Positions 1 to 6,008 of a stretch of 43,481 nt of DNA are shown here, piece after piece. Below the pieces are notes generated by a model. That model did no database searches, was not told where the DNA came from, and worked only from the letters and a program-made list of their open reading frames with translations. Source of the DNA: a virus (Duplodnaviria > Heunggongvirae > Uroviricota > Caudoviricetes); IMG/VR virus record IMGVR_UViG_2711768000_000011; one strand, given 5' to 3'. Each line of letters opens with the position of its first letter. Position 1 is the stretch's first letter. The position numbers and the translations under genes are program-made.

Positions 1-1236
1 CTACGATAACCGCGCATTCAACATGGCTACCTGTTCGTCGTTCATGTCATCAATCCACATACCGTAAATTTCATACACCATCTGCGCAGTTTCATGCCCC
101 ATCTGGCTGGCTATAAACGCCGGGTTCGCTCCTGCCGTCAACAGCCAGCAGGCAAAAGTATGCCGCGTATGGTACGGATTACGGCGGCGAATACCAGCAC
201 GTTTTACTGCTGCATTCCATCTCGCACCCAAACTGCTTACCGAGTAATAAGGTTTCTGTTTTCCGTTACACACTCTGGGCATGAAAACAAAATGCAGTTT
301 TTGCTTTTCGGTTCTGCCGTACTCCCGATGATAAAAAGTGATTTCGCTTTTGCGATGATGCCCGGTCAGTTTGTATTGCTCCTTCAGTGCTTCAAGAGCA
401 GGCTGCAGTAGTGTTACCGTCCGGATCCCCGCATTTGTTTTTGGGGGACCGAACATATCCAGTATCGTCAGGTTTCTTCTGACATTCACAACTCCCTTCT
501 CGAAATCCACATCCTCCCACGCCAGAGCAGCCAGTTCCCCGTGACGAAGCCCGGAGTATACGGCAAATTTCCACAAGTTCTGGCTCTGTCCTTTTTCACT
601 TTCCATTAATGCATTGAATTCTGTTTTAGATAACGGGTCAGGCTTTATTCTGTTTCTCTGTAATTTCTTTACTCCTTCAAATGGTTTGGTTGATATAAAT
701 CCCGACTGATACGCAAAACGTAACAACGAACAGAGCAGGGCGATATAGTTATCAACTGTGCGCACGGTTCTTCCTTTTTTGTTGGATCTTGGATTATCCA
801 GGTAAAGCGTTTCTCCATGCAGCAGTTCATTCCGGTAGTTTAAGATATCGCTATAACGAATATGCGATATCGGAGTACTCTCACAAATTATTATCCTGAG
901 TGTTTTTAATTGTGATTTCGTTTTCTTCATTGTGTTTGTTGTTAACTCTGTTTCTTTAATTTTTGTCCAGATATCACAAAGCTCCCCGAACGTTTTTATG
1001 ACCCTCGTTGTCACCATTTTTGCCCCAGTGCTGGACTGGGGAAAACGTCTTAAATACTCAAACTCACCGGAATTGATTTCATGAACTATCAACGCTCTTA
1101 AATTCCCGGCTTTTTTAATGTTACTGTTAGTAACCTCCCAGCCTTTCAATGTTTCCCGACATCGTTTTCCTCGAAACATGAACCAGATGCGAATGTATTT
1201 ACCTCGAATCTCGACACCTGTTGGTAATTTAGACAT
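1..1236 (-). CDS. intR: Tyrosine site-specific integrase, 411 aa (Rac IntR-like)
   Basis: Complete 411-aa ORF with stop at nt 1-3. N-terminus MSKLPTGVEIRGKYIRIW and C-terminal HTRHTFACWLL...YEIYGMW match the tyrosine-recombinase catalytic motif pattern. Recognised from memory as Rac IntR. Confidence 0.9.
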   Translation of the reverse strand: MSKLPTGVEIRGKYIRIWFMFRGKRCRETLKGWEVTNSNIKKAGNLRALIVHEINSGEFEYLRRFPQSSTGAKMVTTRVIKTFGELCDIWTKIKETELTTNTMKKTKSQLKTLRIIICESTPISHIRYSDILNYRNELLHGETLYLDNPRSNKKGRTVRTVDNYIALLCSLLRFAYQSGFISTKPFEGVKKLQRNRIKPDPLSKTEFNALMESEKGQSQNLWKFAVYSGLRHGELAALAWEDVDFEKGVVNVRRNLTILDMFGPPKTNAGIRTVTLLQPALEALKEQYKLTGHHRKSEITFYHREYGRTEKQKLHFVFMPRVCNGKQKPYYSVSSLGARWNAAVKRAGIRRRNPYHTRHTFACWLLTAGANPAFIASQMGHETAQMVYEIYGMWIDDMNDEQVAMLNARLS

Positions 1237-1237
1237 A

Positions 1238-1453
1238 TCATGAGTCTTTGATAAACTGATTTATCTTTGGATAGTTATACCAGATAATCCCTCGCTTACT
1301 GTCTGGCTTCCCTAAAGGAGATACTCGTTTGAAGTGGAAGCCTTCCACCCAACAGTTCTGGCGGTATGCTTCAATTTGTCTGGCCCCCAGACCAGTGCGA
1401 AGCATCAGGCCGTATTCAACCATCCACTCTTCATTAAAGATTACTTGTGCCAT
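1238..1453 (-). CDS. xisR: Excisionase-like protein, 71 aa (YdaQ/XisR-like)
   Basis: Small ORF immediately upstream of int on the same strand. Taken from internal ATG ([15 protein letters not shown]...), giving 71 aa as in Rac YdaQ. Confidence 0.7.
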
Positions 1454-1552
1454 CGCATCACCTCTGGCAGGCGCCAATGTTAGACTTAAATTGACGCCCG
1501 ATGTTGATTATTAATAATCAGCTATGAAGTTTTAATTTGAATACAATGCAAT

Positions 1553-1741
1553 TCACGAGGACTGAAGTTTCTCGCAATTAAAATTTATCAGTTTTACTTT
1601 CTGCTCTCTGGAAACGCCTGCTTCTTTTTTACCTGAGAGCATTTTTTCGCATTCTGATTTCGTTAGTTTAGATTTTGAATATCTTGTCCAGTTAGTAGGA
1701 GTGCCACCTTCCTTTTCAATAGTGGCGGTAATTTTATACAT
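1553..1741 (-). CDS. ydaC: Small Rac protein YdaC-like, 62 aa from MYKITATIEK
   Basis: ATG at 1741-1739 is preceded by GGAGGTG. Its start overlaps the end of the ralR reading frame (ATGTATAA). The 86-aa track ORF is an upstream extension without an RBS. Confidence 0.55.
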   Translation of the reverse strand: MYKITATIEKEGGTPTNWTRYSKSKLTKSECEKMLSGKKEAGVSREQKVKLINFNCEKLQSS

Positions 1742-1928
1742 GAACACCTCCATTATTATTTCCAGTGGTTCGTTTATTTCATCGTTCGAGTGCTTCTTTT
1801 TCACTTCCACCATAACCGGTTCGGGATTCGCATCCGTTACACTTCGCTCGGTAATATCCTGAAATGGCTTTCACCGTTACTGATGGACAACCACAAAATG
1901 GACATGGTTTAACATTGTCATATCTCAT
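1734..1928 (-). pseudogene. ralR: ralR-like toxin gene (Cys4 small DNase of the RalR/RalA type I TA pair) interrupted by an in-frame TGA
   Basis: Frame from ATG 1928 reads MRYDNVKPCPFCGCPSVTVKAISGYYRAKCNGCESRTGYGGSEKEALER, then TGA at 1781-1779. Reading through gives NKRTTGNNNGGVHV and TAA at 1736-1734, exactly 64 codons, the recalled RalR length. Not in the ORF track because it is under 60 aa. Confidence 0.5.
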
Positions 1929-1956
1929 AATTTTTCTCATAAAAATATTTCAAGTT

Positions 1957-1975
1957 GGCGGTGCATTACACCGCC
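1957..1975 (-). terminator. Hairpin (GGCGGTG-cauua-CACCGCC) just downstream of recT stop
   Basis: 7-bp perfect inverted repeat. On the minus strand a T-rich tract follows only after about 10 nt, so this is a weak terminator call. Confidence 0.3.
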
Positions 1976-1983
1976 AGGCTGAA

Positions 1984-2793
1984 TTATTCCTCTGAATTAT
2001 CGATTACACTGTATTCCCCGGTTAATACAGAGGAATCTGCAGGATCGATTGTCAGTGGTTCCTTTTCATCCATTGATACTGCACGCTGGATCTCAATTGA
2101 TACGGGCAGATATTTGAACAGGCGACGAATAGCCGTTTTCTTTGCCATTTCTTCCCAGTGAGTTACCCACGGCCCGTTATTACCAGCTTTACTCTGGCTG
2201 CGCACCAGCTCAATCTGTTTGCGCGTCATAACTTCAAACTGAGTACCTCCGTCTTTCAGTCTTGCGACAGCATAGACGTGGGTAACAGGGGCATCTTCGT
2301 TTTCTCCTGGGCGGTGTATTAACTTTTCATCAAGGCCAAATTCGAAATTAAACTCGTCACCTTCACGGACAACACGGGCTGACAGGCTGGCGATTTGACC
2401 TGAACGGCGAGCCAGATCAATCATGCCGCGATAGCCAATGATTAGCTGAACGTTTTTTTTACCGCTCTTTTCGTTTTTATTACCAAAAGGCAGTAAATAT
2501 GCATGACCGAGGGCGCTACCGGGCTCAAGTCCGAGCTGTGAACACTGTACGATTGCACTGACAAAACTCATAGTGTCACAGTTTCCTAACGCCGGAACTT
2601 TACGAATTTCTGTGGTGGCGATACGGATCATACGTTCAGCCGTCATATGGCGTGGAAGAGCTGCTGCCAGTTGCTCTTTCATTGATGGCTGGTTAATAAA
2701 ACTAATCACGTCGTTATTTTTAATTGCTGCTGGTGCACGGTTTCCCTGAGTTTTTTGCAGATCGGCTTTTGCGATTGGTGGTTGCTTAGTCAT
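1984..2793 (-). CDS. recT: RecT single-strand annealing recombinase, 269 aa
   Basis: Sequence from [17 protein letters not shown] recognised as RecT. Start ATG 2793 has an AGGA SD and overlaps the recE stop by 8 nt. The track ORF begins 19 codons upstream. Confidence 0.9.
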
Positions 2794-5386
2794 TTGCATA
2801 TTCCTTAGCCCAGCGGGGCAGTGATAACGTCTTAATAGCTGGCCATTCATCGGTATTGAGGCAGTCAGCCAGGGTTCGCAGATTGCGGTGATATTCCAGC
2901 TGACCTGCCAGTTTTGCTTCTTCGCCCATCATGAAAATTTCAACCGGATAACGTCCGCATTCAATAGTTGTGCTGGCAACCAGAAAAACGAAAGTTGGCT
3001 GCACTCCAAACTGTGCTTCATAACCGTCACTGTAGAATGCATCCTGAACGTGATAGCGGTAGTCGTAATAAGCGGTTTTGAATCGTTGAATATCCGCCGT
3101 AGTTTTCACGTCCATGATCCAGTGAAATTCAGGGATAATTTTGTCCGGACGGCACCGACACAAAATTGCTGTTTCAGGATCTTCCCAGTAAATTGATGAT
3201 TCAGCGTGTCCGGCGCTTTCAACAAGCCATTGCCCCAGCGGCAAAGCCATAACGCTCTGATACATGAGTTCAATTTTCCGGCCTTCTTCGGCAGTGATAA
3301 CCGTTTTTCCTGTGCTTGCGCATTCCCTCAGAAACGCTTTCTCTTCTTCTTTTCCGGAGTTTGTCCGGCGGTTAAATTCAGGTGCTACGATAAAGCGGTT
3401 ACTGAATTCTTCCGGCTCAAGTACCCGGCAGTGGAAAGCGGTTCCTAAATCGAGCGTTTTTGTCTTTGTGGTGTCCACGGGGGCATTTTTACGCCACAAA
3501 TACAGTGCCGGAGTATCAGCAATGTCATCGAGCTGAGACTTACTGACACCGGGACCCGCGTGGTAATTCTCATTCGAAATTCCGTAATAAATACCTGGCT
3601 CTATGTCTTCTACGATTACGGGATCTGCGACTTCGCCAGTTTCATCACTGCAATCGCGATGCGGATCGCTGCCAGCATTCTCATTGTGCGGATGTTCAGC
3701 GCCTTCCATTTCCTCCGGATCATTTTCCTTAGCTTCAACCTGACTCTCTTCATCGAATGTTTCCTGGTATGTTGCGTCGCCCATCACCGCACCACAGTCA
3801 GGGCAGTTATCCCCGCCAGTCTGGCCGCAGGCATTGCAGGCTATTTCCGGTTCCTGTTGCACTACTGGCTCAGGTTGATTCATATCCGGGCTGGTTTTTT
3901 CCGTTTCTGGCTGGTTCTGGTACACACAATCGCGAGTCTGGATCCCCTTTACCCATTTCGGATCGTTCGGGTCGCTAATTCCGTCAACAAATTCACCACG
4001 TGATGCAGCAAGCAATTTATCGGCATCGACAGGATTTTTTGATGGAATGTTTTTCCGGGCTTCATGGAGTTCTGCCCGCAGTTCCTGATATTTCGCATCA
4101 ACAGAATTTACCTGTGACTGAGCATCCAGCGGCTGCGTGTCCTGATGATGTTCAGTTGCGTCCGGTTCCATTGTTTCAGCCTCTCCCTGTTCAACTGCCG
4201 TTGTTCCAGATGGTTGCGGTTTTTCTTCATCATCCTGTTTTCCTTCTTCTGTTACTCGCTGCGGCATCGGGGCAGAGGAGCGACCGCAGGCAATATCCAC
4301 GATTTCCGGATCAGGGTTGGCATGATCGGTTTCAGTCAGTACTTTGTTCAGATATTCAGTGACGTGCGCGGGGATGACCTCGATCCCAATTGGTGCTTCT
4401 TTTACGGACGCAACCACGATGGCGCGGGAATAATCCAGCCCGCCAGGCATGGTGATGAATTTGTCGCGGAAAACAGAAAAGGGCGGTTTATTTTCAGCGA
4501 TAATTTCCTCAATGCGTTTAGCGTGTGCCGGATGAAGGTTATAGATGTCCAGATCCATTGAACGGGCCAGTACGCCAGTGGCTACGTCCCGCGCCAGTGA
4601 CGTCAGATCGTGTACGAAACCTTCGCCGCGATCGGTGAGGTTTCCGCCGCCAGCATTAGCACCGGAAGCCGTGCGAGTGATGTGTGAAACACGATTACCC
4701 TTCATCCACTCTTTTGTCAGCAGTCCTCGATCGGTGTAGTCAGCGTTCAGGTATGCTTCGAAAAAAGCAGTTATCAGTCCCAGGTTTGAATTACCAGGAT
4801 TAGGGAAAACTTTGTCAGTGTCACGAACCAGTTTGTGGAGTTCGCGAATTTCCAGCGGGTCGAGCAGGCTGGTTTTGTGGGAAACAGCCAGGGCAGTAAC
4901 AGCCGGTAGTTCTTCAGCCCGAGCAATGTGTAATGCCTGGAGTCCGTCGCGTGAAACGTGCGTTACCGGTTTTTCGCTGCCGTGTTGAGCAAGCCAACGA
5001 ATGGGCAGTTCCTGGCCAGAAATTGGGAGTAGCATATTCTCCTCAATCTCAGTCATGTCTTCGCCGTTGACGTTGGTATTGCCTTGATAGTGAGCGTTGT
5101 CTGGTGCTGCTCCCGGTTTTAGTTCCCATGTCATGGAGTCTTTGCTGAGTTGATAGCGTTCACTCCAGGTAAAATCGATCTCACCTTCAGCGGGCAGGTC
5201 ATTAACGACAGGAAAATTCGTGGCAACAGCTTTAAAATAGCTGCTCAGTTTTTTACCTGACTTAACGATCAGGTAGTCCAGAGTGGCACAGGTCGATTCA
5301 AAATCGTTGCTTGCCCACAGGACGACGTCAGGTTCACCGGATGATTTTTTCGCTTTCCGTAACAGGAAGAGTGGTTTTGTGCTCAT
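2786..5386 (-). CDS. recE: Exodeoxyribonuclease VIII RecE, 866 aa
   Basis: 866-aa ORF with acidic/proline-rich central region and C-terminal nuclease domain. Length and sequence recognised as Rac RecE; translationally coupled to recT. Confidence 0.9.
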
Positions 5387-5457
5387 TGTTTTTTAACCTC
5401 AACTCAGATTAAAATTCGTTTTGTTCAGTGAATGATCTTGCCGGATACACACTGTTC

Positions 5458-5482
5458 ATAGCCTGCGCCATACGCAGGCTAT
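5458..5482 (+). terminator. Hairpin ATAGCCTGCG-ccaua-CGCAGGCTAT followed by TTCTTTC on the + strand, in the racC-recE spacer
   Basis: 10-bp perfect inverted repeat with a 5-nt loop. The T-rich tail is on the + strand only, although the flanking genes are on the minus strand. Confidence 0.35.
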
Positions 5483-5487
5483 TTCTT

Positions 5488-5763
5488 TCAGATTTCACCT
5501 TTTAATTTCATTGCAATTAGAGTTGCCAGAAATTCGGCTTTTTTTTCTGCGGGCAGATTCTTTCCGATATGCACCAGGCACATTTTTTTGACACCTTCAT
5601 CAAGTGTTTTTACGTTGCCTGATGGACCATCGATATCAACCACAGTGAATGGGGTTTCTTTATTTTCTGTTTTAATTACGTAGCCAATGCGCTTTCCTTC
5701 CAGATTCACCTCGTGAACAATGTCATCGGTAGTTACAACAGTGGCTTCATAATTGGTAATCAT
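5488..5763 (-). CDS. racC: RacC, 91 aa
   Basis: From ATG 5763 (MITNYEATVVTTDDIV...) preceded by AAGGAG. Length matches Rac RacC. The track ORF has a 16-codon upstream extension. Confidence 0.8.
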   Translation of the reverse strand: MITNYEATVVTTDDIVHEVNLEGKRIGYVIKTENKETPFTVVDIDGPSGNVKTLDEGVKKMCLVHIGKNLPAEKKAEFLATLIAMKLKGEI

Positions 5764-5837
5764 GTTTTTCTCCTTAATTAAGGTTGAGCGAATACCTGCC
5801 ATTTCTGGCATAAATTCAGTTTCGAATAGTCAATTAA

Positions 5838-6008
5838 TTAAAGTTCATGTGCCATCTGGTCTTTTTCGGCACAAGCTTCACTGCAATATTTTCTCGGTTC
5901 GTCTTTTGATAAAATCCCGTGCATGAAGTGAAGCATTCTTTCAATAGCTTTGCTTTCTTCAACGTCTTTTTTGCAAAGGTGGTAAGCACATTTTATTTTC
6001 TTAGTCAT
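5838..6008 (-). CDS. ydaE: YdaE-like zinc-binding small protein, 56 aa
   Basis: Hand translation: [59 protein letters not shown] overlaps the kilR stop (TGATG). Missing from the ORF track because it is under 60 aa. Confidence 0.75.
   Translation of the reverse strand: MTKKIKCAYHLCKKDVEESKAIERMLHFMHGILSKDEPRKYCSEACAEKDQMAHEL

Follow-up and report, generated by a model that had tools for sequence, protein, structure and literature searches.

A premature opal codon in ralR of a full-length Rac-type prophage: a widespread allele that has probably lost toxin function beside an intact RalA antitoxin gene

The ralR gene of the prophage analyzed here is probably a heritable loss-of-function allele, and the RalR/RalA type I toxin-antitoxin locus around it is intact in other respects. 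By one G>A transition the Trp50 codon (TGG) has become an opal codon (TGA), and translation stops after Arg49. The resulting 49-residue product keeps the Cys4 zinc ribbon and lacks the second half of its only predicted helix, including Trp50, Asn51, Lys52, and Arg53, and it would be devoid of DNase and toxic activity; the gene for RalA, the segment of RalA that pairs, and the target in the ralR mRNA are all unchanged.

An in-frame opal codon interrupts ralR in a complete Rac-type prophage

The window, i.e. the whole 43,481-nt stretch of DNA that was analyzed, is a lambdoid prophage of the Rac type, complete and full-length, that is integrated beside ttcA. It carries intR, xisR, rcbA, ralR, recT, a full-length recE, racC, kilR, sieB, and the repressor region, together with ydaT/U/V, the lysis genes, trkG, and the terminase, portal, P22-type capsid, tape measure, tail, and gpJ genes, and its first 25 kb are 100% identical to E. 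coli NCTC10444, a calf isolate. The features of the ralR region are the following.

1553..1741, minus strand: rcbA/ydaC (DUF1187), 62 aa, matching PF06688 over positions 1-61 of 61
1557..1735, plus strand: RalA sRNA (179 nt), Rfam RF02694, 225.1 bits (gathering score 170), E=1e-54, full-length match (1-179)
1619..1634, plus strand: RalA pairing segment, nt 63-78 of RalA (TGCTTCTTTTTTACCT), which pairs with the ralR mRNA
1734..1778, minus strand: stranded 3' part of ralR, codons 51-64 (NKRTTGNNNGGVHV) and the original TAA (1736-1734)
1779..1781, minus strand: opal TGA, codon 50 of ralR, TGG (Trp) in the K-12 alignment; the next base is A, giving UGA-A
1782..1784, minus strand: CGA, codon 49 of ralR, AGA in K-12 and in all sampled TGG alleles (synonymous)
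1779..1928, minus strand: truncated ralR coding sequence, 49 codons plus TGA, for a Cys4 zinc-ribbon protein of the Lar family
1806-1791, minus strand: RalA target in ralR, 16 nt, coding-sequence nt 123-138, codons 41-46, with a perfect core at 1801-1791
1984..2793, minus strand: recT, the upstream neighbor of ralR in the same leftward early operon (recE-recT-ralR-rcbA-xisR-intR)

On the minus strand the ralR frame starts at the ATG at 1928-1926 and meets the TGA at 1781-1779 after 49 codons, in the order ATG(1928) ... CGA TGA(1781-1779) AAT AAA ... GTA TAA(1736-1734). The product is MRYDNVKPCPFCGCPSVTVKAISGYYRAKCNGCESRTGYGGSEKEALER, with Cys at positions 9, 12, 30, and 33, and the toxin frame of the window is not full-length (64 aa). 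A previous sequence-only reading had described this frame and its Cys4 product, as well as the 64-codon frame that readthrough to the TAA would restore and the ydaC start overlapping that TAA, and both sequence and translation agree with that description. Its assignment of the gene to Rac ralR is borne out by the K-12 alignment and by the recT and rcbA neighbors, and the K-12 comparison that it had proposed, with the expectation of a TGG Trp codon, revealed AGA TGG in K-12 at the place where the window has CGA TGA. As it had also claimed, the product is 15 residues short, residues 50-64 of K-12 RalR being absent; codons 51-64 are no longer translated in the ralR frame unless the UGA is read through. 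With Trp at codon 50, the readthrough form agrees with K-12 RalR (P0016) in all 64 residues, and both the truncated and the readthrough form score above the cutoff of Pfam PF14354 (28.6 bits), the 49-residue product with 39 bits and the 64-residue form with 53.5 bits. The gene is annotated as 195 nt (64 aa) in K-12 MG1655 and as a 150-nt coding sequence in a 100%-identical O157:H7 genome, and RefSeq lists the identical sequence as ralR (WP_001443846.1, a 150-nt coding sequence, not a pseudogene).

Upstream of the annotated start, an in-frame ATG at 1940 (window 1929-1940, minus strand) would add MRKI to RalR, and entries with still longer N-terminal extensions exist (the 77-aa forms P0017 and P0020); a Shine-Dalgarno sequence is not obvious at either ATG (1928 or 1940). 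The interval from the recT stop to the ralR start contains a perfect 7-bp GC-rich hairpin (GGCGGTG-UAAUG-CACCGCC, window 1957-1975, minus strand), with a T-run only ~15 nt beyond it that has one T fewer in the TGA haplotype than in K-12. The promoter/terminator scan made no terminator call at this hairpin, and it returned four promoter-like sites, versus 1.9 +/- 1.4 expected, and zero terminator-like sites. The hairpin may modulate the readthrough of transcription from recT into ralR.

The opal codon belongs to a widespread haplotype

When 5,426 complete E. coli genomes were searched by megablast with positions 1480-2060, 1,923 of them contained the region, annotated as recT - ralR - DUF1187/rcbA. 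The exact 92-nt haplotype with TGA was present in 308 of the 5,426 genomes and the exact K-12 haplotype in 1,108, both counts being lower bounds because they rest on exact matches and on the best place per record. The TGA allele thus makes up ~16% of the ~1,886 ralR-bearing complete genomes, and its carriers include serotypes O157:H7, O111:H8, and O102:H6 and human, bovine, pork, and opossum isolates. In addition, the 49-residue RalR is found on at least 1,000 contigs in a 15-billion-protein collection, whose sources name it RalR.

These data bear on the choice, which the sequence-only reading had left between pseudogenization and a sequencing error. As the TGA is one defined substitution rather than a statistical effect, chance does not enter. 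According to the explanation by error the true sequence would be TGG and the gene intact, and the one point in its favor is that errors typically take the form of a single-base difference from the reference. However, an identical 92-nt haplotype recurs in the 308 complete genomes, which come from unrelated projects, hosts, and serotypes, the whole 581-nt region is 100% identical in many of them, the stop is always paired with a synonymous change 5 nt away, and the site lies outside any homopolymer. A sequencing or assembly error is hardly credible. Judged from these genome comparisons, TGA50 is a real, natural, widespread, and already catalogued allele, and of the two options the real inactivating allele is the one that stands, its inactivation being the inferred part.

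A three-way alignment revealed five differences from K-12 in the 581 nt, as follows.

A T-run shorter by one T, immediately before the ralR start
One intergenic change
AGA>CGA at ralR codon 49 (synonymous)
TGG>TGA at ralR codon 50
AGA>TGA at rcbA codon 63

The 45 nt that follow the ralR TGA are unchanged. When synthetic queries for the CGA-TGG and AGA-TGA intermediates on the 92-nt background were run against the 5,426 genomes, no exact match was obtained, and CGA49 and TGA50 are completely linked on that background. This complete linkage and the lack of an intermediate haplotype suggest a single origin of the CGA49-TGA50 haplotype. Since AGA TGG was present in every full-length allele sampled, including a divergent allele with a TTG start, TGG is the ancestral codon. 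The allele would have arisen once as CGA49-TGA50 and would then have spread with Rac-type prophages into many lineages. The recE gene is intact in the window (866 aa), and in O157:H7 MB41-1, which has the same ralR haplotype, recE is a 5'-truncated pseudogene missing the N terminus; the Rac prophages that carry the haplotype have therefore decayed to different degrees. Nothing relevant came from a search of the literature for truncated RalR in O157. With its own RefSeq accession and its high frequency, the allele is most likely one already known, and a case of ordinary gene decay.

Three records named 'Escherichia phage vB_EcoS-...' (ON470614.1, ON470616.1, and ON470590.1) contain the 581-nt region, truncated ralR included, in identical form. 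They were considered as evidence for compatibility of the allele with a viable phage and rejected as such, as ON470614.1, the one inspected, begins at the integrase like an excised prophage prediction and may be a predicted prophage, not a sequenced virion.

The RalA antitoxin gene and its pairing site are intact

The RalA gene, which the sequence-only reading had expected nearby and had left unplaced, was located by Rfam at 1557-1735 on the plus strand, and its interval has zero differences from K-12. RalA lies antisense to nearly the entire rcbA/ydaC coding sequence, and the former ralR TAA is where its 3' terminator, a hairpin and U-run, ends. Given this antisense arrangement, the preservation of RalA needs no selection for antitoxin function, and its conservation alone is no argument for continued antitoxin function.

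RalA and the ralR mRNA pair at 14 of 16 positions with an 11-nt perfect core, both sites are identical to K-12, and the target ends 9 nt upstream of the new ralR stop. A search for inverted repeats did not detect this pairing site, because the two RNAs come from opposite strands and their complementarity appears as a direct repeat in the DNA; a script then found it. The site matches the published description, i.e. a pairing of 16 nt, 11 of them contiguous, with the repeat located 62 nt downstream of the 5' end of RalA and the mutants T63C and G64C (Guo et al. 2014, PMC4041452). Hence the locus shows the adjacent RalA on the opposite strand, the position of ralR between recT and rcbA/ydaC, and the pairing site of a RalR/RalA system, and it most likely combines an intact antitoxin with a toxin that we infer to be disabled.

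Two further alleles, P0055 (67 aa) and P0058 (96 aa), are in-frame ralR::ydaC fusions with junctions at short direct repeats, GAAAAAGAAG in ralR and AAAAAAGAAG and GAAAAGGAAG in ydaC (window ~1791-1801 and 1619-1629), which also form the RalA/ralR pairing site. To judge from these junctions, the direct repeat evidently serves as a deletion hotspot as well.

The rcbA/ydaC gene starts at the ATG at 1741-1739 within ATGTATAA, shares 8 nt with the former end of ralR, just as annotated in K-12, and has its own Shine-Dalgarno sequence (GGAGG at 1751-1747); both the Shine-Dalgarno sequence and the start lie in the stranded 3' part of ralR. We propose that rcbA/ydaC would still be translated by means of this Shine-Dalgarno sequence, and that ribosomes coming from upstream, which formerly terminated in overlap with the rcbA ATG, would now halt 37 nt before it. 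The stop of rcbA/ydaC in the window (TGA at 1555-1553) is AGA in K-12, and the K-12 form has 69 aa versus 62 aa here. A second truncation was considered to account for this early stop and was ruled out, since the 62-aa form is found in 5 of 5 non-K-12 alleles sampled and covers the whole Pfam model; by this sampling, it is K-12 rcbA/ydaC that carries a 7-codon extension, and the copy in the window is not truncated. The 5' end of RalA (1557) is 2 nt downstream of the nucleotide change at the rcbA stop, a change that could also touch the initiation of RalA transcription.

The truncation removes an invariant motif of the Lar family

Family-wide conservation was derived from an exhaustive HMMER search of 1.84 billion representatives, which yielded 1,690 relatives at E<=0.001; a word-indexed protein search reached close relatives only. 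In an alignment of 60 single-domain Lar-family representatives, mostly 33-48% identical to the query, W50 and N51 were conserved in 60 of 60 sequences and R53 in 59 of 60. C9, P10, F11, C12, C30, and C33 were likewise conserved, the zinc-ribbon cysteines being invariant in all 60, and none of the 60 aligned representatives ended less than 4 residues past the Trp column. The truncated RalR ends at R49 and lacks this C-terminal W-N-x-R motif, which is still encoded past the stop. In the AlphaFold2 model of RalR (repaired 1734-1928, mean pLDDT 78.5), strands at residues 17-22 and 25-30 and a sole helix at residues 43-54 precede a low-confidence tail after about residue 55, and the stop bisects this only predicted helix.

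In agreement with these observations, changes obtained by error-prone PCR at residues 14, 37, 39, 49, 51, and 52 lower the toxicity of RalR, and the purified K52Q variant does not cleave DNA (Guo et al. 2014, PMC4041452). Neither residue 51 nor residue 52 is present in the 49-residue product. Because the invariant W50, N51, and R53 and the essential Asn51 and Lys52 are lost, the toxin and DNase function of the 49-residue RalR has very likely disappeared. The sequence-only reading had called the stop likely inactivating, and the invariance of W50 and N51 and the mutants mentioned above point in the same direction.

Three further natural alleles of E. coli ralR alter the same motif, namely W50S (P0046, a cluster of 26 member sequences), N51D (P0021, 339 contigs), and R53Q (P0019, 360 contigs), and position 51, changed in N51D, is among those at which substitutions lower toxicity (Guo et al. 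2014, PMC4041452). From the occurrence of such alleles, attenuation of RalR may be recurrent in natural E. coli.

The alternative that the 49-residue zinc-ribbon fragment is functional, as a weaker toxin, in a Lar role, or as a dominant-negative or DNA-binding fragment, and that the allele is being maintained instead of decaying, has several observations on its side. All four cysteines and the beta-hairpin (residues 17-30) are kept and the product exceeds the Pfam threshold, so residual or altered activity is possible. The allele is common, it resides in a complete and apparently functional Rac-type prophage, and it is also present in the three deposited phage records; its frequency and the unchanged 45 nt after the stop are equally expected under retained function, and RefSeq handles the 150-nt open reading frame as a normal gene. 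Nevertheless, the lost W-N-x-R motif and the cysteines are equally invariant across 60 diverse members, none of which is without the motif, substitutions at residues 49, 51, and 52 already suffice to lower toxicity and K52Q to abolish DNase activity (Guo et al. 2014, PMC4041452), and the helix is halved in the AlphaFold2 model. Moreover, the other, independent lesions of W-N-x-R that circulate (W50S, N51D, R53Q, and the fusions) look like relaxed or negative selection on the toxin, and records that start at the integrase as excised prophage predictions do are not a demonstration of carriage by virions. A functional fragment is, on balance, unlikely.

With respect to the biochemical activity itself, a search of PDB sequences with RalR gave only a spurious match, the chitin-binding protein CbpD, and Foldseek, run with the AlphaFold2 model against PDB structures, returned generic zinc ribbons only (eIF2-beta, Pol III C11, and ELOF1), at E>0.1. 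Neither search found the structure of a RalR homologue or a recognizable nuclease fold. The assignment of RalR as a DNase depends entirely on the biochemical work of Guo et al., and restriction alleviation, the earlier function given for Lar, is still an alternative. Many relatives (e.g. P0065 with 322 aa, P0070 with 295 aa, and P0171 with 431 aa) contain 2-5 tandem Lar/RalR zinc-ribbon domains, and these are hard to reconcile with the simple picture of the domain as a small DNase toxin.

Readthrough and recoding of the opal codon

UGA is the leakiest stop codon and, followed by A, is described as 'particularly prone' to misreading by tRNATrp in E. coli (Engelberg-Kulka 1981, as cited in PMC5289835). 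At UGA, RF2 meets competition from Trp-tRNATrp, and the extent of readthrough differs from cell to cell (PMC10570021). The ralR stop has the context UGA and then A, and cells may still produce a little authentic full-length RalR, which speaks against complete inactivation. If tRNA-Trp read the UGA at low frequency and inserted the ancestral Trp50, the allele would be attenuated, giving a little, possibly heterogeneous, 64-residue RalR under the control of RalA; the downstream 14 codons, the TAA, RalA, and the RalA target are all intact. However, intact downstream codons are expected in any case, since the haplotype is almost invariant and the Shine-Dalgarno sequence and start of rcbA lie there, and basal readthrough is common to UGA codons in general and is no evidence of function. 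The 67 nt from the UGA fold at an MFE of -8.3 kcal/mol (z = -0.37 versus shuffles), with no stimulatory structure, and within positions 1-6000 nothing other than RalA matched Rfam at E<=1. RalR is probably made at trace level by readthrough, and nothing indicates that this level is elevated, selected, or consequential; attenuation as the effect of the allele is quite unlikely.

A related proposal, that the W50-opal allele is a 'dimmer switch' and not a dead gene, with rare UGA-A readthrough supplying low-dose, stochastic RalR controlled by RalA, is very doubtful. If it were true, the RalR level would be set by the competition between tRNA-Trp and RF2, which is growth- and cAMP-dependent and heterogeneous between cells, and the clustering of natural lesions in WNKR (W50*, W50S, N51D, and R53Q) might be explained.

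Recoding of the TGA as selenocysteine, for which the identity of the codon is the one argument, can be practically dismissed. The fold test revealed no SECIS-like hairpin after the codon, Rfam gave no SECIS match, and the ancestral residue is Trp, not Cys. A selenocysteine or programmed-readthrough signal 3' of the UGA was accordingly ruled out by the z value of -0.37 and the Rfam search.

Significance for annotation

A natural loss-of-function allele of a prophage toxin, which is what we take the CGA49-TGA50 haplotype to be, is an ordinary kind of event, and the finding is of little fundamental importance. Its value is practical and concerns annotation and interpretation. About 1/6 of the ralR-bearing complete E. 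coli genomes, O157:H7 and O111:H8 among them, carry a truncated ralR labeled as functional 'endodeoxyribonuclease toxin RalR'. Because the labeled product lacks residues experimentally required for toxicity, counts of 'intact TA systems' and inferences about Rac phenotypes (e.g. fosfomycin tolerance) in carrier strains may be wrong. The locus also adds a data point to the general pattern in which the toxin of a chromosomal or prophage toxin-antitoxin system decays first and the antitoxin persists, the antitoxin being protected at the ralR locus by lying antisense to another gene.

Comparison with known systems

The closest known system is RalR/RalA of the K-12 Rac prophage (Guo et al. 2014, PMC4041452), with which the window shares the gene order recE-recT-ralR-rcbA/ydaC-xisR-intR beside ttcA, 99.1% identity over the 581-nt region, and identical RalA, 16-nt pairing site, and RalR residues 1-49. 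The window differs in having the opal codon in place of Trp50, CGA at codon 49, one T fewer, and a 62-aa rcbA. It also differs in the extent of its prophage, which is full-length and has genes for terminase, capsid, tail, and lysis, whereas Rac in K-12 is a 23-kb remnant (Guo et al. 2014, PMC4041452).

With the leaky UGA-A stops read by tRNA-Trp (Engelberg-Kulka 1981, as cited in PMC5289835), the ralR stop has in common the tetranucleotide context, and the residue that would be inserted is the ancestral one. In contrast, readthrough of ralR shows no sign of elevation or selection, and no stimulatory structure accompanies it.

Like the members of the Lar_restr_allev family (Pfam PF14354), the truncated product has a CPFC...C..C zinc ribbon followed by the beginning of a helix and matches the profile above threshold. 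In contrast to them, it lacks the invariant W-N-(R/K)-R motif, present in 60 of 60 representatives. Restriction alleviation protein Lar is the name for ralR/lar reportedly given by King and Murray in 1995, and the role claimed for Lar is the alleviation of EcoKI-type restriction together with the enhancement of modification.

Finally, inactivated copies of hok/sok in E. coli K-12 were reportedly described by Pedersen and Gerdes in 1999. As in decayed loci of the hok/sok type, a small lesion destroys the toxin frame at ralR and the gene for the antitoxin RNA persists. The difference lies in RalA, which is trans-acting, pairs through 16 nt, and is embedded antisense in rcbA, an embedding that alone can explain its preservation.
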